This document shows positions 1 to 55,405 of a stretch of DNA of 55,507 nt, piece after piece. Source of the DNA: a candidate division WOR-3 bacterium. GTDB lineage: Bacteria > Hydrothermota > Hydrothermia > LBFQ01 > DSFT01. The notes beneath the pieces were generated by a model that had not been told where the DNA came from, did no database searches, and worked only from the letters and a program-made list of their open reading frames with translations. The position numbers were made by a program, and so were the translations under genes. How positions within the stretch are numbered: the first letter of the stretch is position 1; each line of letters begins with the position of its first letter. The stretch spans positions 1 to 55,507 of the forward strand of contig CBFGJN010000003.1 of the NCBI GenBank assembly GCA_965649115.1, in the 5' to 3' direction.

Positions 1-127
1 GATTTTATAGGGGGTTTTAATGGGAGGCAAAGCCGAAATATGGGTATTTTAAAGGCTCTGCCTTAATTTTAGTGTGGTTGAGCAAAATATAGAAATAACT
101 ATACTTTCCGAATTATTGGACAAAGCA
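1..127 (-). mobile_element. MITE-like repeat, copy A (cut by window edge)
   Basis: Ends AATTATTGGACAAAGCA (111-127); contains AAATATGGGTATTTTAAAGG and hairpin AAGGC-TCT-GCCTT shared with the other copies. Confidence 0.85.
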
Positions 128-149
128 CTAAAACAAAACATTTTTGCTT

Positions 150-155
150 TAAAAT
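150..155 (+). promoter_or_regulatory. -10-like box GCTT-TAAAAT
   Basis: 6 nt before ATG 162; 22 nt from the end of MITE A. Confidence 0.7.
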
Positions 156-161
156 TTAAAA

Positions 162-505
162 ATGACTGACTTAATAAAGCTTTATGAATTATTAAAAGAA
201 AAAATAGGAGAAGAAACTGCCAAACTTCTTGTTGATGCGATATCAAAAATTTATTCTAATGGATATATAAAGAATGAGCAATTTATTGAAGTAATGAGGA
301 CGATAGAAGGTAGGATAAAATCATTTGAGGATATGGTAAAATTTGAATTTTCAAACATGAAGCACAGAAGAATTTCGCTACAAAAGATGATATCAATAGA
401 CTTGAAAAGAGAACTGAAAGAATTGAAAAAATGATTTTAGGGCTTTCAATAACTATTATTTCAAGTATCTTGTTATACTTTCTTTCAAGAATATTTCTAC
501 CATAA
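162..505 (+). pseudogene. Frameshifted small coiled-coil protein with C-terminal TM helix (DUF1640-like architecture)
   Basis: ORF 162-434 continues in the -1 frame (open from 347) as HEAQKNFATKDDINRLEKRTERIEKMILGLSITIISSILLYFLSRIFLP* (TAA 503-505); one added nt near TCAAAC (351-356) restores a 114-aa ORF. Confidence 0.65.
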
Positions 506-540
506 GAGAAGGCTCCGCTCAAAAATTTTCTGAAAATATA

Positions 541-647
541 GATTTATTGGGGGGCTATAAGGGGGACGAAGTTTTTAAGCCGAAGGCTTAATTTTAGGTT
601 GGGCGGGGAAAGATAAGAAATAATCTATATTTCAAAAATATCGACAC
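541..647 (-). mobile_element. MITE-like repeat, degenerate copy B
   Basis: AAGCC-GAA-GGCTT hairpin, AGGTTGGGCGGGG tract, decayed end ...ATATCGACAC running into the next promoter. Confidence 0.7.
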
Positions 648-650
648 CTT

Positions 651-656
651 TAAAAT
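651..656 (+). promoter_or_regulatory. -10-like box CCTT-TAAAAT
   Basis: 7 nt before TTG 664. Confidence 0.65.
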
Positions 657-663
657 TTCAATC

Positions 664-1062
664 TTGAAAAAAATTCTTATTGTTATTTTACTTATTTCTT
701 GCTTAAAAAAGGAAGGAATTGAAATTACAAATGCTTATGGAAGAATTGGAATAAAAGGAGGAACAAGTGCAGTTTTTATGAAAATTAAAAATTATGGACA
801 AATAGATACATTATATGAAGTTTATTGCGATTGTTCTGAAATAAGTGAAATTCATCAAACATTTAAAGAAGGAGATAAAATTAGCATGAAAAAAATTGAT
901 TTTATTGAAATAAGAGATAATTTTGAATTAAAACCACTTTCTTATCACATAATGTTAATAAATTTAAAGAAAGATTTAAAGGAAAACGATACAATTGATA
1001 TAAAATTAAAATTCAAGAAAAATGGAGAAAAACTAATTAAAGTCCCAATTAAAAGGCTTTAA
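664..1062 (+). CDS. Copper chaperone PCu(A)C family lipoprotein
   Basis: Lipobox LLISC; Cu-ligand pattern H-x10-M...HIM; SAVFMKIKN and ELKP..YHIML motifs. Confidence 0.85.
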   Translation: MKKILIVILLISCLKKEGIEITNAYGRIGIKGGTSAVFMKIKNYGQIDTLYEVYCDCSEISEIHQTFKEGDKISMKKIDFIEIRDNFELKPLSYHIMLINLKKDLKENDTIDIKLKFKKNGEKLIKVPIKRL

Positions 1063-2264: not shown

Positions 2265-2272
2265 AATCTAAA

Positions 2273-2292
2273 AGCCCCCAAAAATGGGGGCT
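2273..2292 (-). terminator. Intrinsic terminator-like hairpin
   Basis: Perfect 8-bp stem AGCCCCCA/TGGGGGCT, 4-nt loop, short T run on the minus strand, just after the stop at 2298. Confidence 0.7.
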
Positions 2293-2297
2293 AAAAA

Positions 2298-4019: not shown

Positions 4020-4034
4020 CCTCCTTACCTCCTT

Positions 4035-4982: not shown

Positions 4983-4994
4983 ACCCTAACCTCC

Positions 4995-14871: not shown

Positions 14872-15369
14872 TTACCTTCTAACAACACCTATGAAAATTT
14901 TAGGTTGTAGCTTTAAATCCTTAAAAACTTGAATTGTCATATCAAAAGCCTTAATTAGATATTCATAAGAAGCGTCCTGATGAATAATAATATAAATTGA
15001 TTTGGTGCTATCTTCAATAAAATAACTTTTTAACTTATCAACAATTTGATTAAAATTAACAGGTTCATCTTCTACAAAAAATTCACCTTTATCATTTATA
15101 GAAAATCTTATGTAATTTGAAAATTTCTCCTCTTGGGGATTTTGAAGTCTTTCATACGAGTAAAGAACCCCCCTTGCAGAACCACCTGTTATTTGATAAG
15201 GCAATTGAGCAACTGCAGGTTTTTTCTCAAAAGCAAATAATATACCCTTCTCTTTCTTAGGAATGTTTAAAGCAAAAAACGAAAGGATTATAAAAGATAA
15301 ATTTGCAACAGATAATGATACAAAGTCAAATCTAAAATCAATTGTTTTAACTTCTTTAAAAATTTTCAT
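14872..15369 (-). CDS. exbD: Second ExbD/TolR family protein, TM Asp replaced by Asn
   Basis: TM SVANLSFIILSFF; INDKGEFFVEDEPV; IIHQDASYEYLIKAFD. Confidence 0.7.
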   Translation of the reverse strand: MKIFKEVKTIDFRFDFVSLSVANLSFIILSFFALNIPKKEKGILFAFEKKPAVAQLPYQITGGSARGVLYSYERLQNPQEEKFSNYIRFSINDKGEFFVEDEPVNFNQIVDKLKSYFIEDSTKSIYIIIHQDASYEYLIKAFDMTIQVFKDLKLQPKIFIGVVRR

Positions 15370-15986
15370 ATAACAAGAATTCCTTTTTCAAGAAGATATT
15401 CAACAAGTGCGTTTGAAGCTTCTTCTATTTGTTTTTGATATGTATTTATCCTATTTGTGAAAATAGCATAAAATAAAGCACAGGGAGTAGCAACAACGAA
15501 AGATGCCAATGTCGCTATTAAAGCTTCACCTATACCACTAGCAACAAGTGTAGGTTCAACTTCACCAGATGTAGCTATCGCATTAAAAACTTTTATAAGT
15601 CCTATTGATGTTCCAATAAATCCAAGAAGAGGAGATATTGTAGTAATAGCGGATAAATAAATCATGTTTCTATCAAGGAAAGATAACTCGCTTATAGCTT
15701 TCCTTACCATTGCGTCCTCAAAGGCACTTTTACCTAACTGAACCTTTTCAAGACCAGCAACTAAAACCTTGGCAAGAGGAGAACGATTATTATATAAATA
15801 ATCAAGAGCTTCTTTAAGACCTTGCTCCTCAATAATTTCTATAACCTTTTGAACAAGCTTTAAAGGATTTGTAAATGAAAGAATATAAAGACTTATAAAT
15901 CTTTCTAAAATAATAGCAAGAGCAAAAATTGCAAGGACTAAAAGTCCCCACATCACAGGACCACCTTTCTGAAAAAGTTCAATCAT
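15366..15986 (-). CDS. exbB: MotA/TolQ/ExbB proton channel protein
   Basis: KGGPVM, SPLLGFIGTSIG, GIGEALIAT. Confidence 0.92.
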   Translation of the reverse strand: MIELFQKGGPVMWGLLVLAIFALAIILERFISLYILSFTNPLKLVQKVIEIIEEQGLKEALDYLYNNRSPLAKVLVAGLEKVQLGKSAFEDAMVRKAISELSFLDRNMIYLSAITTISPLLGFIGTSIGLIKVFNAIATSGEVEPTLVASGIGEALIATLASFVVATPCALFYAIFTNRINTYQKQIEEASNALVEYLLEKGILVI

Positions 15987-15996
15987 AAGTTTCCAA

Positions 15997-16002
15997 ATTT
16001 TA
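15997..16002 (-). promoter_or_regulatory. -10-like box CCTT-TAAAAT
   Basis: 10 nt before exbB ATG; 22 nt from MITE D. Confidence 0.65.
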
Positions 16003-16024
16003 AAGGGTGTTATTTTAGGCTTAA

Positions 16025-16206
16025 TAATGTGTCTAGTAATTTTGAAAATATAATTATTTCTATATTTTGCCCACCCATCCTATATTCAAGGCCTCGCCTC
16101 TAAAAACTACGCCCCCCTTAAACCCCCCCGTAAAATTAACAATTTTCTTAAAATTTTTATAAGTCGTTGATAATCAATTATTTAGCATTATTTACTAGAC
16201 AAAGCA
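16025..16206 (+). mobile_element. MITE-like repeat, copy D
   Basis: TAATGTGTCTAGTAAT...TTTACTAGACAAAGCA; GCCCACCCATCC; flanks TAGGCTTAA / TAGCTTTAA (7/9, possible decayed TSD). Confidence 0.85.
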
Positions 16207-16212: not shown

Positions 16213-16309
16213 TAATGTGTCTAATAATTCTAAAAATATGATTATTTCTTATTTTCCCCACCCTAAATACAAGGCTTAGCTTTGAAATTCGCATTAATCC
16301 TCCAAAGCA
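16213..16309 (+). mobile_element. MITE-like repeat, truncated tandem copy E
   Basis: TAATGTGTCTAATAATTC left end (same variant as D), CCCCACCCT, AAGGCTTAGCTTT. Confidence 0.7.
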
Positions 16310-16339: not shown

Positions 16340-16927
16340 CTATAAACTATTGAATTTTCCTCTTAACCTTTCAACATCAATAATTTTCTTTACATTAAAA
16401 ATAGCGCTTTCTAAATCATCATTTAAAACCCAATAATCGTACTCCCATCTAAAATTCATTTCAACATCAATAAGCGAAATCCTTTTAAGTAATTCATCTT
16501 CGCTTAAATCTCCTCTACTCCTTAATCTTTCAATCAAGACATCCTTGCTTGGAGGTATTAAGAAAACACTAATTACTCTACCCCTAAAATTTCTTTCTAT
16601 ATTTCTTTTACCTTGAACATCAATGTCCATTATAATATCCTTACCATTATTTAAATTTTCAAAAATTGGTTTTTTAGGTGTTCCATAAAATTTACCGTAA
16701 ATTTCAGCCCATTCTAAAAATTCATCTTTTTCTATCATTTCTAAAAATTCTTCCTTACTAATGAAAATATAATCAATACCATCTATTTCATTTTGTCTCC
16801 TTTTTCTTGTTGTAATTGAAACTGAATAAAACAAATTATTATCCAACTCTAAAAGTTTTCTACATATTGTAGTTTTACCACTGCCAGATGGTCCTGAGAT
16901 TATTAAAATAAAATTTTGATGCTTCAT
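16340..16927 (-). CDS. gmk: Guanylate kinase
   Basis: SGPSGSGKTT, SITTRKRRQNEIDGIDY, FLEWAEIYGKFYGT. Confidence 0.96.
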   Translation of the reverse strand: MKHQNFILIISGPSGSGKTTICRKLLELDNNLFYSVSITTRKRRQNEIDGIDYIFISKEEFLEMIEKDEFLEWAEIYGKFYGTPKKPIFENLNNGKDIIMDIDVQGKRNIERNFRGRVISVFLIPPSKDVLIERLRSRGDLSEDELLKRISLIDVEMNFRWEYDYWVLNDDLESAIFNVKKIIDVERLRGKFNSL

Positions 16928-18444
16928 AACTTTGGACCCGCTTGTAAAATTTTACTATCAATGTTAAATTTTTTAATATTTTCTATAAACATAAAAGCAA
17001 GCTTTTTGGCACTTTGAATATAATCTTCCTTATTTTTCCAACTATCTTGTGGATAAAATATCCAATCTGGAATATCTGAAATTCTTTTAGGAACTAATAA
17101 ACCAAATATAGGAAATTCATAAAATTCTGCATTACCATCATTTATAGCCCAATCTATCATTCTTCTTGTCAAAACAATATCAATCCTATTTCCAATACCA
17201 TATGGACCACCAAACCAACCAGTATTCACAAGCCATATATTAGGATTATATTTCTCAATTTTTTCAAGAAGCATCTTGGCATATTCAATAGGTTTCAAAA
17301 CTAAAAATGGTGCTCCAAAGCAAGCAGAAAATGTAGCAGTTGGTTCTTTAATACCTCTTTCAGTTCCTGCAAGTTTTGCAGTATATCCTGAGAGAAAATA
17401 AAACAATGCTTGCTCCTTAGTTAATTTTGCTATTGGTGGTAATATACCAAATGCATCAGCAGAAAGAAAGAATATATTTTTGGGATGACCACCTTTACCA
17501 TCTAACTTTATATTTTCAAGAAAATCAATAGGATAACTTGACCTTGTGTTTTCTGTTTTTTCGTCACTATCAAAATCAACACTTCTATCTTCTCTCAATA
17601 TAACATTTTCAAGTATTGTGCCAAACCTCGTAGAAGCTTTATATATTTCAGGTTCTTTTTCCTTTGATATTTTAATTACTTTTGCATAACAACCACCTTC
17701 AAAATTAAATATCCCTTCATCAGACCAACCATGTTCATCATCTCCTATTAAGGGTCGATTAGGGTCTGTTGAAAGTGAAGTTTTTCCTGTACCTGAGAGC
17801 CCAAAAAACAAAGCAGTGTCTTGATTTTTACCTATATTTGCTCCGCAATGCATAGATAAAATGTTTTTAACTTTCGGATAGTAGTAATTTAAAAATGTAA
17901 AAACAGATTTCTTAATTTCACCAGCATATAAAGTACCACCAATTAAAATAATTCTTTTTGAGAGATGAAGAATTATAAAAACTTCGCTTTTTGTTTTATG
18001 AACTTCAGGTCTTGCCTTAAAAAATGGGACATGATAAATAACAATATCTGGATTGAAATTTAAAATATCATTCTTATTAGGTCTTATAAACATATTTTTA
18101 GCAAATAATGCATGCCAAGGGCTTTCTGTTATGACTCTTAATTTTAATCTATGCTTCTCTTCCGCTCCAACGAATAAATCCTCAACATAAACATCTTTTG
18201 TATTTAAGTAATTTTTTACTTCCTCTAAAAGTTTATTAAAATGCTCCTCATCAAAAGGTTGATTAACTTCACCCCACCAAACATCATCTTTCGTTTCATT
18301 TTCATACACAATAAACTTGTCTTTTGGAGATCTTCCTGTATAAGGTCTTGTATCTACAACAAGTGTTCCATTATTAGAGAGAATAGCAAGATTTTTCTTT
18401 ATACTTTCTTCGTACAACTCTGCCACACTTAAATTATGTTTCAT
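16924..18444 (-). CDS. pckA: Phosphoenolpyruvate carboxykinase (ATP)
   Basis: TGRSPKDK, YAGEIKKS, FGLSGTGKT, IGDDEHGW, FNFEGGCYAK, TENTR. Confidence 0.97.
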   Translation of the reverse strand: MKHNLSVAELYEESIKKNLAILSNNGTLVVDTRPYTGRSPKDKFIVYENETKDDVWWGEVNQPFDEEHFNKLLEEVKNYLNTKDVYVEDLFVGAEEKHRLKLRVITESPWHALFAKNMFIRPNKNDILNFNPDIVIYHVPFFKARPEVHKTKSEVFIILHLSKRIILIGGTLYAGEIKKSVFTFLNYYYPKVKNILSMHCGANIGKNQDTALFFGLSGTGKTSLSTDPNRPLIGDDEHGWSDEGIFNFEGGCYAKVIKISKEKEPEIYKASTRFGTILENVILREDRSVDFDSDEKTENTRSSYPIDFLENIKLDGKGGHPKNIFFLSADAFGILPPIAKLTKEQALFYFLSGYTAKLAGTERGIKEPTATFSACFGAPFLVLKPIEYAKMLLEKIEKYNPNIWLVNTGWFGGPYGIGNRIDIVLTRRMIDWAINDGNAEFYEFPIFGLLVPKRISDIPDWIFYPQDSWKNKEDYIQSAKKLAFMFIENIKKFNIDSKILQAGPKL

Positions 18445-18453
18445 AGTTTCAAA

Positions 18454-18459
18454 ATTTTA
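18454..18459 (-). promoter_or_regulatory. -10-like box GCTA-TAAAAT
   Basis: 9 nt before pckA ATG; 22 nt from MITE F. Confidence 0.6.
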
Positions 18460-18481
18460 TAGCATAATAAAGTGTTTTACC

Positions 18482-18620
18482 TGCTGTGTCTAGTAATTCT
18501 GAAATTATTATTGTTTCTTATTTTCTCCCACCCTACGAAATAAGCCTTCGGCTTATAACTTTGCCCCCCGTTAAACACCATATAAAAACTATTATTTCAA
18601 AAAATTCTTCACAAATCAAC
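18482..18620 (+). mobile_element. MITE-like repeat, copy F (right end decayed)
   Basis: TGCTGTGTCTAGTAATTCTGAAA, CCCACCCT, AAGCC-TTC-GGCTT, GCCCCCC. Confidence 0.8.
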
Positions 18621-18664
18621 AGTATAATTCCCTCTTTATTTCAATTAATCTTTGCTGTGTCCTT

Positions 18665-18670
18665 TAAAAT
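18665..18670 (+). promoter_or_regulatory. -10-like box CCTT-TAAAAT
   Basis: 6 nt before ATG 18677. Confidence 0.6.
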
Positions 18671-18676
18671 ATGGGT

Positions 18677-22132: not shown

Positions 22133-22245
22133 TGATGAGTCTAGTAATTCTGGAAACATATATTTTTCCCACCCACCCTATGAATAAGCCTTCGGCTTAT
22201 AAATGCCCATTTTTCGGCCTAGGGGGGCTTTGCCCCCCATAAAAT
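22133..22245 (+). mobile_element. MITE-like repeat, copy G (left two-thirds)
   Basis: TGATGAGTCTAGTAATTC, CCCACCCACCCT, AAGCC-TTC-GGCTT, GGGGGGC-TTT-GCCCCCC. Confidence 0.85.
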
Positions 22246-22265
22246 CTTTAACTGAATTTATGAGG

Positions 22266-25451: not shown

Positions 25452-25567
25452 TGCTGTGTCTAGTAAAAGGCTTAATTTTATAGGGGGTTATTTGAGGGGG
25501 CGTAGCCCCCTACTGAAAATAGGGTGGGTGGGAGAAATATAGAAAAATAGGTATTCGACAAATAGCA
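25452..25567 (-). mobile_element. MITE-like repeat, short copy I1
   Basis: TGCTGTGTCTAGTAA...GGGGGC-GTA-GCCCCC...AGGGTGGGTGGG...GACAAATAGCA. Confidence 0.75.
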
Positions 25568-25600
25568 GTGTGAGTGAAAAGCTTTTTTAAATCATTGGAG

Positions 25601-25752
25601 CATTTATAAAGTTATTGATTTAATGGGGAATTTTAGTGGGGCAAAGCCCCCCCATGGCATAAAAATGGGTATTTTAAAGCCGAAGGCTTAAATATAGGGT
25701 GGGTGGGAAAAATATAGTAAAATAAATAGTTTTGGAATTACTAGACAAAGCA
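25601..25752 (-). mobile_element. MITE-like repeat, copy I2
   Basis: GGGGC-AAA-GCCCC, AATGGGTATTTTAAAGCC-GAA-GGCTT, AGGGTGGGTGGG, GAATTACTAGACAAAGCA. Confidence 0.85.
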
Positions 25753-27681: not shown

Positions 27682-27687
27682 ATTTTA
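27682..27687 (-). promoter_or_regulatory. -10-like box GCTT-TAAAAT
   Basis: 11 nt before mnmA ATG. Confidence 0.55.
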
Positions 27688-27692
27688 AAGCA

Positions 27693-27834
27693 TTTATTTT
27701 TCCTTATTTTGCCCGCCCACCCTGAAAATAGGGAGCTTTACCCCCCTATAATCCCCCATAAAATCAATAGTTTTATTGAAATTTTCGTAAGTCATTGATA
27801 ATCAAGCATTTAGCAATGATTACTGGACAAAGCA
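27693..27834 (+). mobile_element. MITE-like repeat, copy J (left TIR lost, internal deletion)
   Basis: GCCCGCCCACCCTGAAAATA..CCCCCCTATAATCCCCCATAAAATCAATA..TTGATAATCAA..ATTACTGGACAAAGCA; nearly identical to copy O. Confidence 0.8.
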
Positions 27835-27945: not shown

Positions 27946-27956
27946 ACAATGAACTT

Positions 27957-27962
27957 TAAAAT
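27957..27962 (+). promoter_or_regulatory. -10-like box ACTT-TAAAAT
   Basis: 7 nt before ATG 27970. Confidence 0.65.
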
Positions 27963-27969
27963 TTAAAAA

Positions 27970-30120
27970 ATGCTTTTAATACTAATTATTCAAATTTTCT
28001 ATGAAGATTTTGAAAATTCCTTATTTCCACCAACTGGATGGACAAATACAGGAACAAGAAGCACACTTTGGGTAAGAAGGACAAGTGGTGTAGCTTTTGG
28101 AACTGCTTCTGCTGGTGTCTCAGTTGCTCAAACTTCATCAGAAACTGGGACTGCAATCCTTCAAACACCAATTATAAACCTTCCATCAATAAACCCAAAT
28201 GATACGATAATTTTCTCATTTTATTATAAACTTCCATCTGTTGGAGGTGCTTTTGATACAAGATTTAGATCAACAGATACATTAAAAGTTCAAATATCAA
28301 ATGATGGCAATAATTGGACAAATTTAATTGTTTGGGATTCAACAAGTTTATATACAGGAGCAAATAATCAACCAAAAAAGGTTCAATTTAATATATCCTC
28401 CTATCAAAATACAAATATTTATATTAGATGGATTTTTATAGATAATACATCACTAACGGATGCTTCTAATTCATATTTCAATATAGATTCTATTTTTATC
28501 GTAATTAAGCAAGGTCTTCCACAATCTCCATATATTCCAATAGACAGCATTCAAAAAACTGTTTATCAAGGAACTGATAGTTCAATTTTTTCAGGACAAA
28601 GTATTAGAACAAGTGGAATAATTGTTGAAGTTGGTAAATATAATTCAAAGGGGTTTCATATCAAAATGAAAAATGGTGGTCCATATTCAGGAATATATAT
28701 TTATACGACGAATTTAGTAGGATTATCAAAAGGTGATTCAGTTATGGTAGAAGGAATTGTAAAAGAGTACTATAAATACACAGAAATTGTTCCCTCAAAT
28801 ATCCAAATTATTAGTCATAATAACTCATTTAAAATTGATACACTGACAACAGATTTAATAAGTTCATCAAATCCAGATAATGCAGAAAAGTACGAAGGTG
28901 TTTATATCTTCATAAAAAAGGCTATTGTGATAGATAATACAAATTCTTATAGATATGAAATTAAAAATGGAATTTTAAGTGCTTACTTGTCAAAATTTAA
29001 TGTTCCAAATTTAAATTTAAATGATATCATTTCAGTTTGGGGTGTCCTGGTTTATGAATATGGAGAATATAGAATTTATGCAGATAGCATTTACATTCAT
29101 CAATTTCCTTATAAAATTGATAAAATCATTTATGGTTATTACGATAGTCTAATTTTGAAATTCAAAAAAGTTTTTAGTCCAAATTCAAATTCCTATATTA
29201 AATTTTCTGTTTCCAATTTAATGAGGGATACAACAATTTTTGACACTGATAGTTTTAATTTTACTATTAAACTAAGTTCGCTTAACAGAGGTCTTTACAA
29301 TGCCAATATCCAAATGATTTATAATAATGATACTACAAATTTCTCATTTTTATTACCATATCCAAATGGTTTTAGTTGTTTATTGGTAAATGAATTTGAT
29401 GATTATCCAACCAAAGATGAATTTATTGAAATAAAGAACTATTGCCAATATCCAGTAAATATTGGAGGATTATATGTAAAAAGTTATTCGGGAACCAATA
29501 TCTATACAAGTTCCCCATTTGATAATATAACCTTAGAGCCAAATGGAATTTTCGTTTTCATATATGATACATTTCAAAATAATATATGTCAAAGATATAA
29601 CTTAAATAATTGTAAGGCTTTAAGTAAATGGACTTATATAAATTATCAACAGCCTATGGTTATATCAACACCAGAAGGTTTCGCAATTGACTCCATTTGG
29701 TACGATTCTTATTGGGGAGGAAGAGATCCATATACAACTATAAGGGTTAATCCAAACGAAAAAGGTTGGACGAGAAGTGCATGGGGACCCTCATCTATTC
29801 CAGGAGGAACACCAGGAAAAGATAACGATATTTACATAAGCGATGAACAAGATATTGAGGTAAATAAAAAAGATTTAGCAAAAGGAGATATTTTAAGTTT
29901 TGCTTTTAATTTAAAGGAAGAAACAAATAATGTTTATATTTATCTTTACGATGATGCAGGAAGGTACATAGATAGAATCTATTATGAAAAAAATTATATC
30001 ACAAGAAAAGGAATTGTGTTTTATAACACATCAAGGCTAAAACCAGGAATTTATATTGTTGCAATTACAGTTGATGGAAAAACAAGAAATAAAATTGTTT
30101 TTAGAATAAGACCAAAATGA
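27970..30120 (+). CDS. Secreted multidomain protein: MAM/adhesin-like N-terminus, OB folds, lamin-tail domain, T9SS-type CTD
   Basis: YEDFENSLFPPTGW; GQSIRTSGIIV and AEKYEGVYI OB-like units; LLVNEF..DEFIEIKN (LTD); IYLYDDAGR..LKPGIYIVAI. Confidence 0.7.
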   Translation: MLLILIIQIFYEDFENSLFPPTGWTNTGTRSTLWVRRTSGVAFGTASAGVSVAQTSSETGTAILQTPIINLPSINPNDTIIFSFYYKLPSVGGAFDTRFRSTDTLKVQISNDGNNWTNLIVWDSTSLYTGANNQPKKVQFNISSYQNTNIYIRWIFIDNTSLTDASNSYFNIDSIFIVIKQGLPQSPYIPIDSIQKTVYQGTDSSIFSGQSIRTSGIIVEVGKYNSKGFHIKMKNGGPYSGIYIYTTNLVGLSKGDSVMVEGIVKEYYKYTEIVPSNIQIISHNNSFKIDTLTTDLISSSNPDNAEKYEGVYIFIKKAIVIDNTNSYRYEIKNGILSAYLSKFNVPNLNLNDIISVWGVLVYEYGEYRIYADSIYIHQFPYKIDKIIYGYYDSLILKFKKVFSPNSNSYIKFSVSNLMRDTTIFDTDSFNFTIKLSSLNRGLYNANIQMIYNNDTTNFSFLLPYPNGFSCLLVNEFDDYPTKDEFIEIKNYCQYPVNIGGLYVKSYSGTNIYTSSPFDNITLEPNGIFVFIYDTFQNNICQRYNLNNCKALSKWTYINYQQPMVISTPEGFAIDSIWYDSYWGGRDPYTTIRVNPNEKGWTRSAWGPSSIPGGTPGKDNDIYISDEQDIEVNKKDLAKGDILSFAFNLKEETNNVYIYLYDDAGRYIDRIYYEKNYITRKGIVFYNTSRLKPGIYIVAITVDGKTRNKIVFRIRPK

Positions 30121-30614: not shown

Positions 30615-30987
30615 AGCGGAAATATCTTCTGCTCACAGGATATTAAACCATAAAGGAAAGTGTAGAAATTTACATGGACATAATTACTTTATTATTGTTG
30701 AAATTGAAAGTGACGAACTTGATGAAAATGGTTTTATAATTGACTTTTTAGAAATAAAGAAAATAATTAATGAACTTGACCATAAAGTGATTTTACAAAA
30801 AAACGACCCCTTAATTGAAAAACTAAAAAGTGAAAGTTTGTTTATAATGGAGGAATCACCAAGTTGTGAAAATATAGCTAAAATTATTGCAATCAAAATA
30901 TCACAATTATTAAAAAACTACAAAAAAATTAAGGTAAGAGTTTGGGAAAGTAGAAGAAGTTATGCAGAATTTGAATTAAAAATTTAG
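30598..30987 (+). CDS. queD: 6-carboxytetrahydropterin synthase (PTPS/QueD)
   Basis: SSAHR..GKCRNLHGHNY, ELDH, PSCENIA, VWES; start moved to MKIVYK. Confidence 0.9.
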   Translation: MKIVYKAEISSAHRILNHKGKCRNLHGHNYFIIVEIESDELDENGFIIDFLEIKKIINELDHKVILQKNDPLIEKLKSESLFIMEESPSCENIAKIIAIKISQLLKNYKKIKVRVWESRRSYAEFELKI

Positions 30988-32768
30988 CTAATTGTTTGAA
31001 TTTCAACTAAATTTCTATAAACTTCACATCTATCAATAAGTTCTTCATGCTTTCCAATATCTAAAATTCTGCCATTTTTCATAACAATAATTTTATCAAC
31101 AAATAATATCGTGCTTATTCTATGGGCTATAATAATAGCAGTCTTATCAAACAAGAAATTTTCAATAGCATTTATAATTTTTTCTTCACTTTGAGCATCT
31201 AAATTACTTGTAGGTTCATCAAAAAAAATAATTTCAGGATTTTTTAAAATAGCTCTTGCTATTGTTAATCTTTGTTTTTGACCACCAGATAAATTCGCTC
31301 CACCCTCTGAAATTTTATAAAAATAACCATCTTCAAGACTTTCAATAAACTCACTTATATTTGCTAATTTACAGGCTTTTTTAACTTCTTCTAAACTTAT
31401 ATTTTTTGAAAATGTTAAGTTTTCATAAATAGTTCCTTCAAACAAAAATGGTTCTTGGGGAACAAAGCTAATTTTGCTTCTATAACTTTCAATATTATAA
31501 TCCCATAAATCAATTCCATCTATCAGAACCTTTCCCGAAGTTGGTTTTAATAAACCTGCTAAAATTTCAATTAATGTTGTTTTTCCTGCTCCTGAAAGTC
31601 CAACAATTCCAATTTTTTCCCCTTTTTTTATTGTAAAATTTATATTGTCTAAAATCATTTTATTACCATAATAAAACGAAACATTAACAACCTCAATTTT
31701 TTCCTTTAATTTTTCAAATATAATTTGACCACCTTTTGGTTCATCGGGTAAGCTCAAAAATTCCAAAATTCTATTATAAATTGAAACACCTCTTTGAATG
31801 TGGTTATTTGCCTTAAAAATTCGCTTAATTGGACTAATACTTGAAATAACTAAAAGTAAAAAAACAATAAATTGATCACTTGTTAGTTGAGATTTTAAAA
31901 AAACCAAATTTGAAACATAAATCAAAAATAAAATGATAGGGACAGAAACAATAAATTCTGAAAAATTTGAAGAAAAACTGCCAAGAGCTTCAAGTTTCAA
32001 AACTGCATTAAAGTAATTTTTTGAAAGTTTTTCAAATTTAGAAATTTCTTTACTTTTATTTGAAAAAATTTTTATAACCTTTATTCCTCTAACTACTGAA
32101 CCTATATAAGAACCTATTTGTGAAACATTCTGATTTAATTTATTCCACCTATAATTCATAGCTTTTGAAATTAAGAACAATAACAACCCCAAAGGAATTG
32201 CAATTAGAATGCCAAATAACAAAAGATTAAAGGCAATAATAACCAAAATTGAAATATAAATTACTAATTTTACAAACGAAAACAAAAATTCAAATACACC
32301 TTCGGTTAAAGAACCTTTTAATAATCTAATATCATTTGTAAATCTACTAATAATTTCACCTGAACTATGTGTATTTATCCAATATGTAGGAAGTAATAAA
32401 AGCTTTGAAAACATTTTATTTCTTATTTCCATCATCATTTTTTCTTCAACTATTGTTGTTATAACATCTTTTAAAAATAGAACTAAAAATTTTAAGAGAA
32501 ATATAAAGAAAGTAAGAATTGCTATTCTGATTATTGCTACATGTGGCTCAACATTAAAAAATAATTTAGCTATTAAATTATCTAAAAATTTTAAATTTTC
32601 AACATTAGAAAATAATCTAGGAGGTTCTTGACTATTTAAAATTACCCTTAAAGCAATCGGAAGTGAAGAAAAAGAAATGCTTTCAATTAATGAACCAAGC
32701 GAAACCAAAAAAATTAAAAAAATTACACTAATTTTTCTTGAAAGAACTAAACTCAAAAAGTTTTTCAT
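30984..32768 (-). CDS. MsbA-like ABC transporter (TMD plus NBD)
   Basis: GEIISRFTND, GLSGAGKTT, LSGGQKQRLTIARA, FDEPTSNLD. Confidence 0.92.
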   Translation of the reverse strand: MKNFLSLVLSRKISVIFLIFLVSLGSLIESISFSSLPIALRVILNSQEPPRLFSNVENLKFLDNLIAKLFFNVEPHVAIIRIAILTFFIFLLKFLVLFLKDVITTIVEEKMMMEIRNKMFSKLLLLPTYWINTHSSGEIISRFTNDIRLLKGSLTEGVFEFLFSFVKLVIYISILVIIAFNLLLFGILIAIPLGLLLFLISKAMNYRWNKLNQNVSQIGSYIGSVVRGIKVIKIFSNKSKEISKFEKLSKNYFNAVLKLEALGSFSSNFSEFIVSVPIILFLIYVSNLVFLKSQLTSDQFIVFLLLVISSISPIKRIFKANNHIQRGVSIYNRILEFLSLPDEPKGGQIIFEKLKEKIEVVNVSFYYGNKMILDNINFTIKKGEKIGIVGLSGAGKTTLIEILAGLLKPTSGKVLIDGIDLWDYNIESYRSKISFVPQEPFLFEGTIYENLTFSKNISLEEVKKACKLANISEFIESLEDGYFYKISEGGANLSGGQKQRLTIARAILKNPEIIFFDEPTSNLDAQSEEKIINAIENFLFDKTAIIIAHRISTILFVDKIIVMKNGRILDIGKHEELIDRCEVYRNLVEIQTIS

Positions 32769-32780
32769 TTTTGTTATGAA

Positions 32781-32786
32781 ATTTTA
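32781..32786 (-). promoter_or_regulatory. -10-like box CCTT-TAAAAT
   Basis: 12 nt before ATG 32768; 22 nt from MITE K. Confidence 0.6.
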
Positions 32787-32808
32787 AAGGATTTAATTAA
32801 ATGAATTC

Positions 32809-33013
32809 TGCTGTGTCCAATAATTCTGAAAGTATTTATTTTATTATGTTTTCCCCACCCACCCTGAAATAAAGGCTACGCCTTTAAAATACCCATATTT
32901 CGGCTTTGGGGGGCCTCGCCCCCCTTAAAAACCCCCTTTAAATCAATAATTCTCTTAAAATTTTTGTAAGTTGTTGATAATCAATAACTTAACACTATTT
33001 ATTGGACAAAGCA
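32809..33013 (+). mobile_element. Full-length MITE-like element, copy K (205 bp)
   Basis: TIRs TGCTGTGTCCAATAA / TTATTGGACAAAGCA; hairpins 32871-32885 and 32908-32924; dyad 32968-32990. Confidence 0.92.
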
Positions 33014-37397: not shown

Positions 37398-37403
37398 TTT
37401 GAA

Positions 37404-37409
37404 ATTTTA
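37404..37409 (-). promoter_or_regulatory. -10-like box CCCT-TAAAAT
   Basis: 6 nt before ATG 37397. Confidence 0.65.
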
Positions 37410-37423
37410 AGGGATAATTTTTT

Positions 37424-37627
37424 TGCTGTGTCTAGTAATTCTAAAAACTATTTATTTTACTATATTTTCCCACCCACCCTGAAATTAAGCTTTCAGCTTA
37501 AAAATACCCATTCTTATGCCTTGGGGGGCTTCGCCCCCCATTAAACCCCCGTAAAATCAATAATTCCAATAAAATTTTTATAAGATATTGATTATCAATT
37601 ACTTAACACTATTTATTGGACAAAGCA
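37424..37627 (+). mobile_element. Full-length MITE-like element, copy L (204 bp)
   Basis: TGCTGTGTCTAGTAAT...TTATTGGACAAAGCA; AAGCT-TTC-AGCTT; GGGGGGC-TTC-GCCCCCC. Confidence 0.92.
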
Positions 37628-37635
37628 AGAGTTAG

Positions 37636-37815
37636 TGCTTTGTCTAGTAATTCTAAAATTATGATTATTTCTATCTTTCCCCACCCACCCTAATAATAAG
37701 CCTTCGGCTTGAAAATATCCATATTTCGGCAGAGGGGGCAAAAATCAATAATTTCCTTTAAATTTTTATAAGTTATTGATTGTCAAGCATTTAAAACTAT
37801 TTACTAGACAAAGCA
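37636..37815 (+). mobile_element. MITE-like element, copy M (tandem with L)
   Basis: TGCTTTGTCTAGTAA / TTACTAGACAAAGCA perfect 15-bp TIR; 8 bp from L; L+M flanked by TAATTTTTT direct repeats. Confidence 0.92.
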
Positions 37816-45722: not shown

Positions 45723-45736
45723 AAAATAAATTGAAA

Positions 45737-45742
45737 ATTTTA
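45737..45742 (-). promoter_or_regulatory. -10-like box CTT-TAAAAT
   Basis: 14 nt before ATG 45722; 22 nt from MITE O. Confidence 0.55.
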
Positions 45743-45764
45743 AAGATAAATAAACCTTATAAAT

Positions 45765-45929
45765 TGCTGTGTCTAGTAATTCTGAAATATAGATTATTTC
45801 TTATTTTGCCCGCCCACCCTGAAAATAAGGCTTCGCCCCCCTATAATCCCCCATAAAATCAATAATTTCTTTAAAAATTTTATAAGTTATTGATAATCAA
45901 GGATTTAACAATAATTATTGGACAAAGCA
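45765..45929 (+). mobile_element. MITE-like element, copy O (165 bp) with perfect 9-bp TSD
   Basis: CTTATAAAT|TGCTGTGTCTAGTAAT...ATTATTGGACAAAGCA|CTTATAAAT. Confidence 0.95.
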
Positions 45930-45945
45930 CTTATAAATTTAACTT

Positions 45946-45951
45946 TAAAAT
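45946..45951 (+). promoter_or_regulatory. -10-like box ACTT-TAAAAT
   Basis: 7 nt before radA ATG 45959. Confidence 0.7.
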
Positions 45952-45958
45952 TTCAATA

Positions 45959-48605: not shown

Positions 48606-48784
48606 TGCTTTGTCTAGTAAATAATATTAAGTTGCTGATTAATTATGAATTTTACGGGGGGACTTTATGGGGGGCAGAGCCCCCCACTGCCGAAAAATGG
48701 GCATTTTAAAGCCGTAGGCTTTAATTTTGGGCGGGTGGGGAAAACATAGAAAAATAAATAGTATCAGAATTATTGGACAAAACA
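48606..48784 (-). mobile_element. MITE-like element, copy P with perfect 9-bp TSD
   Basis: TTTAAAAAT|TGCTTTGTCTAGTAA...TTATTGGACAAAACA|TTTAAAAAT; GGGGGGC-AGA-GCCCCCC; AAAGCC-GTA-GGCTTT. Confidence 0.92.
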
Positions 48785-48799
48785 TTTAAAAATCACCTT

Positions 48800-48805
48800 T
48801 AAACT
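48800..48805 (+). promoter_or_regulatory. -10-like box CCTT-TAAACT
   Basis: 5 nt before TTG 48811 (or 8 nt before TTG 48814). Confidence 0.6.
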
Positions 48806-48810
48806 TTCAA

Positions 48811-49518
48811 TTGTTGATAATTTTCCTTTTATTTGACTTACCAAATGACCCAAAAACATTATATGAAGTTGCATTAAATGAATTTAAAAACAAAAATTAT
48901 AAGCAAGCTGAAAAAATTTTAAAAAGAATTATTTATTCGTTTTCACCTAATGAATGGACTGATAAAGCACAGTTTTATTTAGCACTTTTATATTATGAAA
49001 TAAAAAATTATGAACTTGCAAAGATTGAAGCAGAATTCTTTGTAAATAATTTTAAATATAGTGAATTTTATCCAAATGGTTTAATTTTACTTGCAAAAAT
49101 TTATTATAAATTATCACCAAATCCACATAAAGATATATCTGAACTTAACAAAGCAATTGAAATTTTAAATAGAGTTAAAACATTGTATCCAAGTTATAGT
49201 CAATCAGCTGATAGTATAATGTTCCTAATTAGAAAAAAATTTGCCCAAAAAATTTTAATTTCTGCCAATGTTTATAGAAACATTGAAAAACCAAAATCAG
49301 AAGCAATTTACCTTGAATACTACTTAAATAATTACATTGATATTGAACCTGATTCAGTAGCATATAGACTACTTGAAATATACGAAACTTTAAATGAAAA
49401 AGAAAAAATTATTAATTTAACTGAATTAATTCTCAAAGGTGATAATTTTTCTTCATGGATAAAAAAAGTAGCCCTTGAGAAACGAGATAAATATGGCTAT
49501 CGCTCTGATAGGAGGTAG
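48811..49518 (+). CDS. bamD: Outer membrane protein assembly factor BamD
   Basis: TPR pattern LYEVALNEFKNKNY..DKAQFYLA..FVNNFKYS; KFAQKILISANVY; no lipobox visible. Confidence 0.8.
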   Translation: MLIIFLLFDLPNDPKTLYEVALNEFKNKNYKQAEKILKRIIYSFSPNEWTDKAQFYLALLYYEIKNYELAKIEAEFFVNNFKYSEFYPNGLILLAKIYYKLSPNPHKDISELNKAIEILNRVKTLYPSYSQSADSIMFLIRKKFAQKILISANVYRNIEKPKSEAIYLEYYLNNYIDIEPDSVAYRLLEIYETLNEKEKIINLTELILKGDNFSSWIKKVALEKRDKYGYRSDRR

Positions 49519-50065: not shown

Positions 50066-50084
50066 AATTGAAGCATTTAAATTT

Positions 50085-50260: not shown

Positions 50261-50270
50261 TTATGTCCTT

Positions 50271-50276
50271 TAAACT
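50271..50276 (+). promoter_or_regulatory. -10-like box CCTT-TAAACT
   Basis: 8 nt before gyrB ATG. Confidence 0.65.
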
Positions 50277-50284
50277 TTTGATAT

Positions 50285-52192: not shown

Positions 52193-52407
52193 ATTATAGA
52201 GAGCTAATTGAAATTATGAATGGAATTAAAGATTTATATGAAAGAATAAAAAAGTTTCATCAAACTACAAAAAGGACACTTTTTTTAGTGGAAACGAGAT
52301 TGAGATTCAAACTTTGTTCAATTTTAGTTATTTTAGTTTTAAATTTAACAATAACCTTGTTAATGCTATGGATTTTAATAAAACTTTTGGGGATAGTGAG
52401 AAGTTAA
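52189..52407 (+). CDS. Small protein: coiled-coil-like N-terminus plus C-terminal TM helix
   Basis: ATGA overlap with the gyrB stop; hydrophobic ILVILVLNLTITLLMLWILIKLLG. Confidence 0.5.
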   Translation: MNYRELIEIMNGIKDLYERIKKFHQTTKRTLFLVETRLRFKLCSILVILVLNLTITLLMLWILIKLLGIVRS

Positions 52408-53510
52408 GAATTAGATATTTTGAAATTGAAGAGTTTGAAGATGGATATAGAGTTATTGATCCTTTTGGATTTTTTGAAGATTTATTTTTTACAAAAGAAG
52501 CATTATATTTAATTAGTTTGTTTGATGGAACAAGAACAATAGACCAAGTAAAATTAGATTTTTTTAAAGCTACAAATATAATGCTTTCTGATAGTGAGAT
52601 ATTGAATTTTATAAACCAAATGGATAACTACTATTTATTTTATAATGAGAAATTTATAAACAGGTTCGAAGAAGAGAGAAAAAAAATTTTAGATTTGGAA
52701 TATAAACCCATTGAAATGATTGAAAATATAAGTCAGGTTAAAAACTTCATTAAGCAAAATCTAACTGATGACTTTGAAAATGATATAATTGCTTTAATTG
52801 TTCCACATATTGATTTAAGAATAGCTATGGATACCTATCTAAAAACTTACTCAAAAATTAAAAATTTAAAAAGAAAAATTTTTATTATATTTGGAGTTGC
52901 TCATTCTGTCCATTTAACACCATTTTCAATATTTCCTAAAAACTACTTTACTGATAGAATCGTAAAAGTTAATAACGAAATTATAGAAAAAATTAGAAAT
53001 TTGTTTGGTTATGATATTCATTTTGATGTACTAGCTTATAGAGATGAACATTCAGTTGAATTTCCAATTTTATTCATTGATAGTTTATTTGAAGAATTTT
53101 CAATAATTCCATCAATTATTGCTTATGCTAATAATAAGGAGGACTTAAAAACAATTGCTTATAGAATATACGAAGTTATTAGAAACTATAAAGATGAGAT
53201 ATTTTTAATATCAAGTATTGATTTAAGTCACGTTGGAAAAAAATTTGGTGATAGTGAATATTATAACCCAAAGGAAATTGATATGGAATATATTAAATAT
53301 ATTTTAGAATTTGAAAATGATAAGGCTTTTGAATTTTTAAAAAATTCTCAAAATCAAACGAGAATTGATGGACAATTTACAAATTATGTATTTCTTGAAA
53401 TTTTAAAATTATTAAATGTTAAAAAATCTCAAATTATTGAATATAAAAATTATTATGAGGAATTGACGGATTCAGGTGTTAGCTATTGCTCTATTAGTTT
53501 TCATATCTAA
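52368..53510 (+). CDS. AmmeMemoRadiSam system protein B (MEMO1 family) with N-terminal extension
   Basis: IVPHID, GVAH, EHSVEFPILF, SSIDLSHVG; start uncertain (ATG 52368 vs TTG 52314). Confidence 0.82.
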   Translation: MDFNKTFGDSEKLRIRYFEIEEFEDGYRVIDPFGFFEDLFFTKEALYLISLFDGTRTIDQVKLDFFKATNIMLSDSEILNFINQMDNYYLFYNEKFINRFEEERKKILDLEYKPIEMIENISQVKNFIKQNLTDDFENDIIALIVPHIDLRIAMDTYLKTYSKIKNLKRKIFIIFGVAHSVHLTPFSIFPKNYFTDRIVKVNNEIIEKIRNLFGYDIHFDVLAYRDEHSVEFPILFIDSLFEEFSIIPSIIAYANNKEDLKTIAYRIYEVIRNYKDEIFLISSIDLSHVGKKFGDSEYYNPKEIDMEYIKYILEFENDKAFEFLKNSQNQTRIDGQFTNYVFLEILKLLNVKKSQIIEYKNYYEELTDSGVSYCSISFHI

Positions 53511-54053
53511 AATCCACACTTCTCCATTCTTTTGCTTGTAATTCCAAAATAATTTCCAATCTAAATTGTTCAAAATAAAAAATATAATACCATTTGTAAG
53601 TTGATGTCCAACAATTAGGACATTTTCGTAGTTTTTACTTTCCAAATCTTCTAAAAATGCTCTTGCTCTACTAACAACTTGTAAAAATGTCTCTCCGTTT
53701 GGGGGATTATATAAGAATGGATTTTCTCTTACTTTAATGAAAAATTCTTTATTTTCATTAATAATAACAGAAGATTTCTTCCCTTCCCAATCACCCATAT
53801 TTTGCTCCCTTAAACGATTATCTAAAATAATTGAACTTTTATATTTGTTTATTTTGTTTATAATTTCAGAAGTTTGAATAGCTCTTTTTAGATCAGAAGA
53901 ATATATAACATCAAACTTTATATCTTTCAATTTTTCTCCTAATTCAATTGATTGTTTTATTCCGTTTTCATTTAATTCAAGATCAGTCCATCCTTGAATT
54001 AAATCATTTAAGTTGTAATCCGTTTGACCGTGACGAACTAAGTAAATTTTCAT
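53472..54053 (-). CDS. Histidine phosphatase (PGM-like) family
   Basis: LVRHGQT, SSDLKRA, LREQNMGDWEG, VGH. Confidence 0.92.
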   Translation of the reverse strand: MKIYLVRHGQTDYNLNDLIQGWTDLELNENGIKQSIELGEKLKDIKFDVIYSSDLKRAIQTSEIINKINKYKSSIILDNRLREQNMGDWEGKKSSVIINENKEFFIKVRENPFLYNPPNGETFLQVVSRARAFLEDLESKNYENVLIVGHQLTNGIIFFILNNLDWKLFWNYKQKNGEVWILDMKTNRAIANT

Positions 54054-55350
54054 AGTCCGAAAAGTTTAATGCTAAAATTCCATCTTTTAAATTATAAGCT
54101 TTAAATCCCATATTTCTCAATCTAATAGTTAAAGCATAGCTTTTTCTACCACTATTACAATATAAGACAATTTTATGAGTTTTCTTAAATTTAGATAAAT
54201 TTTTTAAATGTTTCTCAATTTCTTCTGATGGAATGTTAATTGAGTTTTCAATTTTAAGTTCATTCATTTCATCAGAACTTCTTACATCAATAATGATAAC
54301 ATTATTTTCTTTAAGCATTTCTTTAAGTTCATTATAATCAATTTCAATTTTTAAATCCTCTAATTTTTCTTTATATTCTTTAAGTTCTAAAACTCTCTTA
54401 CATTTTGAACATATTTCACTATTTGATGGCATTGAACAAATTGAACAAGCTTTAATATCTTCTAATTCTTCATTTAAGTTCTTTTCATATAGTGGAATAA
54501 TTTTTTTCCTAAAAATTGAAAGAAGTCTAAATTTAATATCAGGTTGTGTTTTTTCTAATTCATCAATCCAATTTTTGATTTGTTTTATTGTTGTTATTTC
54601 TCCATGAGGACAAGAACATTCTTGAACTGGAAGATCATTTAAACTAACATAATATAAGTCTTCAATTTCGGGTGTAGTTATTAAGGGTTTTATTTTTCTT
54701 GGATAACCATTTAAAAGTGGTTTTAAAACAGGTTTTAATTTTCTTATCCCTTCAAAATCACCACTTAAAAATAGGGACATCATTGTAGAAACAGTATCAT
54801 CTAAATTATGGCCTGTTGCTAATGCATTAGCATTTACTTTAACTGATAATAAAGTAAATATATTTCTTTTTATTGTTCCACAAACGGAACACATTTTGTC
54901 TTTGTACTTTGTAATCAGAAAGTCATCAATTGTATAACCTTCTTTCTCTTTAAGATTGTATATTTCTAATGGGATTTTTAAGTTTTCACAAAGTTTAATA
55001 ACTTTCTTTTCAAGATGGTCAGAATAGTACTTAATTCCGAGATTTATATAAAAAGCAAATATATCCTGTTCTTTAAAAGCCATTTTAAGCGCATGTAATA
55101 ATGCAACACTATCTTTACCTCCTGAGACTGCAACTGCAACTCTTTCATTTTTGTTGAACATTTTAAATTCTTCAACAACCCTTCTAATTCTATTTATAAA
55201 GAAATCATTAAAACAACTTTTACAAAACTTTTGTTTTGCATATCTAATTTCAATAATAGCACTATCTTTTTTACATCTTGAACATCTACCAATAGGTTCT
55301 AATTTTAATTTTATTCTACCAATTCCACATTTACCATAAAAAATTTCCAT
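54004..55350 (-). CDS. TtuA/TtcA-family tRNA thiolase fused to a C-terminal rhodanese domain
   Basis: Zn fingers CSRC..CKSC and CSIC..CSKC; PP-loop SGGKDS; CSVC; GHNLDD; rhodanese IDVR..VLYCNSGRKS. Confidence 0.85.
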   Translation of the reverse strand: MEIFYGKCGIGRIKLKLEPIGRCSRCKKDSAIIEIRYAKQKFCKSCFNDFFINRIRRVVEEFKMFNKNERVAVAVSGGKDSVALLHALKMAFKEQDIFAFYINLGIKYYSDHLEKKVIKLCENLKIPLEIYNLKEKEGYTIDDFLITKYKDKMCSVCGTIKRNIFTLLSVKVNANALATGHNLDDTVSTMMSLFLSGDFEGIRKLKPVLKPLLNGYPRKIKPLITTPEIEDLYYVSLNDLPVQECSCPHGEITTIKQIKNWIDELEKTQPDIKFRLLSIFRKKIIPLYEKNLNEELEDIKACSICSMPSNSEICSKCKRVLELKEYKEKLEDLKIEIDYNELKEMLKENNVIIIDVRSSDEMNELKIENSINIPSEEIEKHLKNLSKFKKTHKIVLYCNSGRKSYALTIRLRNMGFKAYNLKDGILALNFSDYENLLSSSRSNGLQLK

Positions 55351-55360
55351 AAGTTATAAA

Positions 55361-55366
55361 ATTTTA
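55361..55366 (-). promoter_or_regulatory. -10-like box ACTT-TAAAAT
   Basis: 10 nt before ATG 55350; 21 nt from the complete TIR at 55388. Confidence 0.6.
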
Positions 55367-55378
55367 AAGTTTAAAAAT

Positions 55379-55405
55379 TGCTTTGTCTGCCTTGTCCAAT
55401 AATTC
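55379..55405 (+). mobile_element. Doubled MITE-type terminus followed by non-MITE sequence
   Basis: TGCTTTGTC immediately followed by TGCCTTGTCCAATAATTC; the next 100 nt do not match the other copies. Confidence 0.65.

Follow-up and report, generated by a model that had tools for sequence, protein, structure and literature searches.

An IS5-family insertion sequence and its MITE probably insert in one orientation at a fixed distance upstream of host promoters

The window analysed here is a stretch of 55,507 nt that forms contig C3 of the metagenome-assembled genome (MAG) G000, from a candidate division WOR-3 bacterium. It carries copies of a miniature inverted-repeat transposable element (MITE) and, at its end, part of a longer insertion sequence (IS) of the IS5 family. 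Genome-wide, the largest class of left ends of these elements lies 18-20 nt upstream of an 11-bp motif, CTTTAAAATTT, which is probably a host promoter, and the right ends show no such preference. These counts support insertion with a set orientation and at a constant distance upstream of host promoters, and we consider it quite probable that an IS5-family IS and its MITE insert in one orientation at a fixed spot upstream of these promoters. The assembly comprises 1.85 Mb in 99 contigs with 27% G+C, and was compared with the congeners G001-G004, among which G002 shows 88-92% identity to G000.

Results

Position of left and right ends relative to the motif

Distances were counted from the element tip to the 11-bp motif, 19 nt to the motif being equal to 22 nt to TAAAAT. 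Among 442 left ends in the genome, 186 lie at 18-20 nt (137 at exactly 19 nt and 45 at exactly 18 nt), 60 form a minor register at 10-13 nt, 105 are stacked against a neighbouring copy, 7-12 nt from its right inverted repeat (94 at exactly 9 nt), and 75 fall into no distance class. The right ends (n = 299), which served as internal control for this histogram, showed no distance peak to the motif and no distance class above 3. The peak is thus formed by left ends only, a polarity like that of TnGBS-type elements. The same pattern of spacing and orientation is present in 355 kb of G002. Viewed from the host side, the distance to a left end is 70 nt or less at 255, or about 40%, of the 630 promoters defined by the motif, and at 232 of them the left end falls in one of the two registers; an element tip is found at 18-20 nt at 171 promoters of open reading frames (ORFs). 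In the window, the 9-mer CTTTAAAAT occurs 26 times against 7.3 expected.

The 9-bp target is separated by 10 bp (sometimes 9) from CTTTAAAATTT, which lies downstream of it. If TAAAAT is placed at -12 to -7, the first position of the motif is -15, the target extends from about -34 to -26 and the inserted tip comes to stand at -35. The target of the minor register is located 8 bp nearer to the motif, at -26 to -18. Of 30 sites with a spacing of exactly 11 nt, 16 have TG before the motif, whereas the share elsewhere is 14-15% (p = 0.002); the values are 14% in the 19-nt class and 15% at empty promoters. Together with the motif, TG gives TGCTTT, a sequence that also forms the tip of the inverted repeat of the element itself and is placed here as in the junctions between stacked copies. 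This suggests that the 11-nt register is a second mode, in which insertion takes place beside an end-like sequence. The minor register is commoner among old copies.

The fixed distance and orientation had been proposed in an earlier reading of the window from its letters alone (hereafter the sequence-only reading), and the genome-wide histogram bears the proposal out. Its 22 nt to the -10 hexamer at copies A, D, F, K and O correspond to 19 nt to the motif (CTTTAAAATTT; at F, CTATAAAATTT), and its 21 nt at G (22133) and R (55388) to 18 nt. As to the sites that it placed at 14-15 nt, a spacing of 11 nt to the motif was recovered at L (37424) and one of 12 nt was found at Q (48784). The statement that the left end faces the promoter is correct for most of the copies named; J faces the 3' end of a gene without a motif, and B is degenerate, with its tip fused to the motif. 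The tip at about -35, duplications of about 9 bp and the sparing of genes had also been anticipated and agree with what we found.

The motif as a host promoter

With one mismatch allowed, 630 ORFs have the motif at 4-8 nt before their start codon, and its TAAAAT ends 6-10 nt before the ATG. Since the motif is this close to the start codon, most mRNAs of G000 would be leaderless or nearly so. Short distances of this kind are found in the window at 147-161, 18662-18673 and 27954-27972; long leaders bearing a classical AAGGAGG are found in a minority of genes. The motif also precedes mRNAs with a normal Shine-Dalgarno leader and 32 of the 45 tRNA genes, where it is placed 6-7 or 13 nt from the mature 5' end (for instance in the regions of C2:48405 and C51:13976), and eight tRNA promoters have an element at 18-19 or 10-11 nt. 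Its presence before tRNAs and leadered mRNAs identifies the motif as a signal for transcription.

The motif is retained in place at orthologous genes of the element-free G001 and G004, where the upstream DNA is unrelated, and it is found also at orthologues in G003 and at empty sites in G002. A conserved position, as expected of a -10 element, is therefore seen at ORFs, tRNAs, leadered mRNAs and orthologues in relatives. At 375 promoters with no element nearby we detected no information upstream of about -16 and no -35 element. Judged from these sequence features, the motif is most probably an extended -10 promoter of the sigma70 type that has no -35 partner. It lies outside the transposed unit, since flank positions 1-9 and most of positions 10-19 between tip and motif carry no information and the target duplication is located between the two.

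Structure, abundance and mobility of the MITE

The repeat, derived by aligning copies in the window, is a MITE of about 205 bp with terminal inverted repeats TGCT(G/T)TGTCYAGTAAT and an asymmetric interior rich in G/C hairpins. An nhmmer profile built from seven copies gave 698 hits in the genome, 235 of them full length, which add up to 95.8 kb, or 5.2% of the genome and about one third of the crude non-coding DNA. The element contains no ORF and has its inverted repeats in common with the autonomous IS described below. In 109 of 211 full-length MITEs, against 1 of 211 in the shuffled control, the 9-mers on the two sides of the element match at no fewer than 8 of 9 positions, and they do so at offset 0 only. 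Together with precise empty sites in the congener G002, these matched flanks show that the MITE is mobile and generates a 9-bp target-site duplication. One empty site of G002 is inside an ORF that the MITE interrupts in G000. An off-target insertion of this gene-disrupting kind, which is rare, is the full-length MITE at G000 C4:35714-35925: it lies within an ORF that is intact in G002, with a precise empty site, has the duplication GATTTATT(T/A) and no promoter motif nearby, and the copy holds a run of 10 N.

The family is abundant in G000 and G002 and sparse in G003; two further species of the genus lack it, as does the remainder of the class. Almost every contig of G000 stops about 100-127 nt into a MITE or IS; the two ends of the window (1-127 and 55388-55507) are both inside such repeats. 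The family is the main cause of the fragmentation of G000 into 99 pieces, and the interior of the IS is missing from the bin.

The autonomous IS and its transposase

Sixteen identical contig ends, among them element R of the window, represent the left end of an element longer than the MITE. Its right end is found on ten other contig ends and contains an inward-facing copy of the promoter motif followed by the start of an ORF, MGKVNWQEYNKELVRRGEIWV...; this motif copy is predicted to be the transposase gene's own promoter. IS and MITE have about 19 nt of the left end and about 25 nt of the right end in common, including the terminal inverted repeats TGCYTTGTCYARTAAT.

None of the MAGs G000-G004 contains the assembled interior of the IS, and a PF01609 search of them was therefore negative. 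There was no transposase between the MITE halves that bound long elements, an exact 50-mer of the IS had no match in the metagenome contigs searched, and the N-terminal fragment of the transposase, searched across 64 genomes of the class, was found only in G000, apart from one distant hit. This fragment of 56 residues matches the IS5-family model NF033579 (E = 3e-5). By a homology search restricted to residues 1-56 of a padded query we recovered the full transposase, P0001, a protein of 300 aa encoded on ten public hot-spring contigs, to which the 56-aa N-terminus from the contig ends of G000 matches at 92%. P0001 scores 245.5 bits against NF033579 (cut-off 140) over positions 2-288 of 289, also matches PF13737 and PF01609, has no domain beyond the IS5-family core, and is about 30% identical over 97% of the protein to transposases of the ISVa1 and ISAba10 type. 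On six public contigs the IS measures 1052 bp between inverted repeats that are 14/16 identical to each other, with one ORF and no second gene. It carries both ends known from G000, and its left end is again 18-19 nt from the motif.

The size, single ORF, 9-bp duplication and ends fit the IS903 group, and the partner of the MITE is accordingly classed as an IS5-family (IS903-like) DDE transposon. A TnpB-like partner of the MITE received no support; the ends agree with those of the IS5-type IS. The kinship with Mutator-like TnGBS/ISLre2 elements that the sequence-only reading had suggested has to be given up: the transposase is of the IS5 family (245 bits against NF033579, with PF13737 and PF01609), and the geometry differs as well.

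Three observations concern individual IS copies. At C93:2-169 and C50:14075-14221 the N-terminus of the transposase occurs in two forms, ...EKEKRGRPYKYP, which is that of the public full-length protein, and ...EKDKTPTPYKYP; they indicate at least two IS sublineages in G000. On the public contig L057 (JGI 3300000865) the left end of the IS stands beside the same 9-mer and promoter flank as copy O (window 45735-45765), and the same landing pad may have been used by the IS in another population; the other flank of L057 is unmatched and possibly chimeric, and the contig ends in sequencing adapter. At G000 C17:30919-30971 an IS copy has, at 19 nt, a degenerate form of the motif, GTTAAAAATTT, which is next to a perfect 20-bp palindrome, CACTTTAAAATTTTAAAGTG, and is not followed by a start codon on that strand. 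This site may be a decoy, relevant to the choice between recognition of DNA and of polymerase.

Age of the copies and order of insertion in stacks

The sixteen contig ends of the IS share 120 nt at 100% identity, each beside a different flank, and a motif is found at 18-19 nt in 12 of them. A spacing of 18-20 nt is found in 18 of the 24 full-length MITEs that have a sister copy of >=97% identity, compared with 41 of the 120 most diverged, which are more often in stacks than the youngest. In 84 stacks anchored at a promoter, 88% of the proximal and 13% of the distal copies are full length; the proximal member outscores the distal one in 77 of the 84 (p = 5e-16), comparisons in which the proximal copy was required to have an intact left tip. 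The spacing is thus strongest in the youngest copies, and the member of a stack nearest to the promoter is the newest; these data point to a preference at the moment of insertion and not to slow selection. Survival after random insertion would be expected to leave a broad spread of distances, since nothing upstream of -16 is constrained.

Many spacers in stacks are identical to the duplication of the proximal copy, and 4 of the 10 right ends of the IS adjoin the left end of an older MITE. From this it follows that the same 9-bp target is rebuilt and that older copies are pushed outward.

Copies and promoters in the window

The coordinates of the copies and of the promoters next to them are collected in Table 1. 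The array I + J is not present at the orthologous site of G002. In the pair L + M, M (37636) adjoins the right end of L and the 9-mer TAATTTTTT flanks the pair as a whole, and the spacer AGAGTTAG(T) is common to two head-to-tail pairs, at window 37628-37635 and at about 59471-59479 of G000 C1. Because of this common spacer at two loci and of TAATTTTTT around the entire pair, a dimer of the L + M type may have transposed as one unit by means of its outer ends. The right end of copy O is 13 nt from a divergent motif at 45943-45953; O separates two divergent promoters whose distance was only about 30 bp prior to the insertion.

The proteins encoded in the window include proteins with a tail of the type IX secretion system (T9SS), a SusC-like receptor, gyrB, pckA and a TtuA-type tRNA thiolase, a set consistent with a thermophile close to the FCB group. 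Neither Rfam nor tRNA scans gave a match in the window, and a 16S rRNA gene was not found in the MAG.

Table 1. Element copies and adjacent promoter motifs in the window
Feature	Position	Strand	Description
MITE copy A	1..127	-	cut by the contig start; nhmmer model positions 1-135; left tip at 127, then 19 nt, then motif
Promoter motif CTTTAAAATTT	147..157	+	of gene 162-434; ATG 4 nt past the motif
Degenerate copy B	521..651	-	truncated left tip adjoins motif 648-658 of gene 664-1062
Promoter motif	15995..16005	-	of gene 15366-15986; same motif at orthologues in element-free G001 and G004
MITE copy D	16025..16206	+	left tip 19 nt from motif; followed by partial copy E, 16216-16295
Promoter motif CTATAAAATTT	18452..18462	-	of pckA operon 16924-18444
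MITE copy F	18482..18606	+	right-truncated; left tip 19 nt from motif
MITE copy G	22133..22246	+	left tip 18 nt from motif 22104-22114
Copies I + J	25471..25752	-	left tip 25752 faces gene 3' end, no motif (exception)
MITE copy without left tip	27683..27834	+	model positions 17-205
Promoter motif	32779..32789	-	of gene 30984-32768
MITE copy K	32809..33013	+	full length; left tip 19 nt from motif
Head-to-tail pair L (37424-37627) + M (37636-37815)	37424..37815	+	tip of L 11 nt from motif 37402-37412
MITE copy O	45765..45929	+	duplication ATTTATAAG; left tip 19 nt from motif 45735-45745
MITE copy Q	48606..48784	-	left tip 12 nt from motif-like CTTTAAACTTT 48797-48807, before gene 48811-49518
Promoter motif	55359..55369	-	of ttuA-like gene 54004-55350
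Element R	55388..55507	+	left end of the 1052-bp IS, not a MITE; 18 nt from motif; contig breaks inside

Discussion

According to the account that we favour, IS and MITE transpose with 9-bp duplications into a target that ends about 10 bp upstream of the motif, always with the left end toward the promoter, so that the tip lands at about -35. The promoters would need nothing upstream of about -16, and for this reason the gene would still be expressed and the insertion would be nearly neutral. As the duplication regenerates the target at the promoter, new insertions push older copies outward and build head-to-tail stacks with 9-nt spacers.

The data above show that the MITE is mobile, that it makes the duplication, which IS is its partner, that the motif comes from the host, and that the rule of distance and orientation, its recency and the order within stacks hold; how the distance is measured is less certain. 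We regard the chances as roughly balanced that it is the transposase which binds the invariant 11-bp duplex, with cleavage about two helical turns away and the asymmetry of the ends setting the orientation. Direct reading of the motif is favoured because the target lies within the stretch covered by the holoenzyme, because there is neither an extra domain nor a partner gene, and because the invariant 11-mer is long. More tentative still is the complete proposal, in which a single IS5-family transposase of 300 aa reads an 11-bp address, integrates one-way and evolved independently of the Mutator-like elements that target promoters.

Guidance by RNA polymerase or sigma, with the transposase docking on the holoenzyme or the open complex and integrating at a fixed distance, is less likely than direct reading of the motif and in our judgement unlikely. 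It has a precedent in TnGBS, ISLre2 and ISKra4, which insert upstream of sigmaA promoters in fixed orientation (PMC3942029), and it would account for the fact that only motifs in promoter position are occupied, those of tRNAs and leadered mRNAs included, while the 35 intragenic motifs are all empty; selection against gene disruption, however, accounts for the empty motifs too. The orientation rule needs a polar landmark and the core of the motif is nearly palindromic, but palindromy is lost in the complete 11-mer, which includes a flanking C and T-run and could provide the polarity itself. Moreover, the target at -34 to -26 (in the minor register -26 to -18) is inside the region covered by the holoenzyme, where sigma region 4 normally sits, and there is neither a domain beyond the IS5-family core in the transposase nor a second gene in the IS.

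A further possibility, which we consider improbable, is that resident ends attract new copies and that the link to promoters stems from a few founder events combined with TGCTTT-like promoters. Both the stack junctions and the 11-nt register do consist of a tip, 9 nt and TGCTTT, and an older left end was present on the far side of the target at many sites of the 19-nt class, as discussed below. Against this stand the 171 ORF promoters with a tip at 18-20 nt, and the identical left ends of the IS, which face the promoter directly in 12 of 16 cases and a right inverted repeat in only 2 of 16. Furthermore, TG before the motif is no commoner in the 19-nt class than at empty promoters, and first insertions are seen at promoters that are empty in G002.

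It is very improbable that the elements insert unspecifically into AT-rich intergenic DNA and merely survive there, or that their end supplies part of a promoter or insulates it. Most intergenic DNA of this genome is short, the GC-rich hairpins of the element could insulate a promoter, and TAGACA in the left tip resembles a -35 hexamer. Yet, in the absence of any constraint upstream of -16, 137 sites are at exactly 19 nt and 45 at 18 nt in one orientation, and the peak is strongest in the youngest and identical copies. The left tip is ruled out as supplier of a -35 hexamer: the distance from TAGACA to the -10 hexamer would be 27 bp, and it is the variable duplication that takes up the -35 slot.

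A mobile promoter cassette, in which the motif moves with the element, could explain the constant distance from motif to end and the motif-like sequence inside the right end, but it is refuted by the motif at empty orthologous sites and in element-free congeners, by the unconserved 19 nt between tip and motif and by the target duplication between them, and can be practically dismissed. The idea that the motif mimics an inner inverted repeat was rejected as well, by-eye alignments giving 5-6 matches in 11, which is the chance level in AT-rich DNA.

Several findings weigh against promoter-directed insertion by the IS5-family transposase, or limit it. Most of the duplication-verified 19-nt sites (about 70-80%) had an older left end on the far side, and at those stacked sites attraction by the resident end is inseparable from attraction by the promoter. 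The emptiness of all 35 exact intragenic motifs is explained equally well by purifying selection. Seventeen per cent of the left ends are outside all classes, at least one insertion is intragenic, and the shift of the minor register by 8 bp has only a partial explanation. The 9-bp duplication was scored on copies of the MITE, the two flanks of one IS copy being unpaired. Finally, the IS903 pattern WTTYA-N9-TRAAW was not seen around 44 duplication-verified sites, so the target specificity is not simply inherited.

Within the literature searched, promoter-targeted transposition in bacteria has been described for the Mutator-like TnGBS, ISLre2 and ISKra4. The present elements would represent a second, unrelated family of bacterial transposases that homes to promoters, with base-pair precision, which points to convergent evolution of safe-harbour targeting. 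With one ORF, two 16-bp ends and an 11-bp address, the system is simple enough to be suited for studying how a DDE transposase measures distance and polarity, and if direct reading of the motif is true, it would provide a cut-and-paste DDE transposase that is naturally specific for site and orientation. It also bears on the host: since about 40% of the promoters carry a left end within 70 nt upstream, the occupied promoters, including those of tRNAs and housekeeping genes and mostly occupied at about -35, must work without a specific -35 or upstream sequence. For genome reconstruction, the family explains why the assembly fell into 99 pieces.

Relation to other targeted and promoter-associated elements

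In behaviour, the nearest known counterparts are TnGBS, ISLre2 and ISKra4; the nearest known relatives are elements of the IS903 group. TnGBS, ISLre2 and ISKra4 have prokaryotic Mutator-like transposases and insert in fixed orientation upstream of sigmaA promoters; TnGBS-type elements keep 15-17 bp between their end and the -35 box downstream of it, a position beyond the footprint of the polymerase core (PMC3942029). The elements described here likewise use DDE chemistry, keep a fixed distance upstream of housekeeping-sigma promoters, take one orientation through unlike inverted repeats and avoid genes. In contrast, the transposase is IS5/IS903-like here and Mutator-like (p-MULT) there, two unrelated superfamilies, and here there is no -35 box, the tip taking the -35 position 18-19 bp from an extended -10 motif. 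A MITE burst at about 40% of promoters is not described for those elements in PMC3942029, although no search was aimed at one.

With the IS903 group (ISVa1, ISAba10) the IS has in common its size of about 1.05 kb, one ORF of about 300 aa with PF13737 and PF01609, and the 9-bp duplication. Its inverted repeats presumably resemble those of IS903, GGCTTTGTTGAATAAATC, but begin with TGC instead of GGC. The target preference of IS903 is loose and palindromic, WTTYA-N9-TRAAW (PMC2577343). Unlike IS903, which shows no homing to promoters, the present elements do so, and this pattern is absent from their sites.

Like the Correia/NEMIS elements of Neisseria, the MITE is short and non-coding, has inverted-repeat ends, is mobilised in trans and occurs in hundreds of intergenic copies, often near promoters. 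Correia elements insert at TA and can carry promoters of their own; they differ from the MITE, which shows a base-exact distance from host promoters and a single orientation. In another domain of life, the yeast retrotransposon Ty3 integrates at transcription start sites of RNA polymerase III by means of TFIIIB. Ty3 is a eukaryotic long terminal repeat retroelement with a factor-tethered integrase and the present element a bacterial DDE transposon, but both show integration that is base-precise, spares genes, is addressed by the core promoter and reuses its landing pads.

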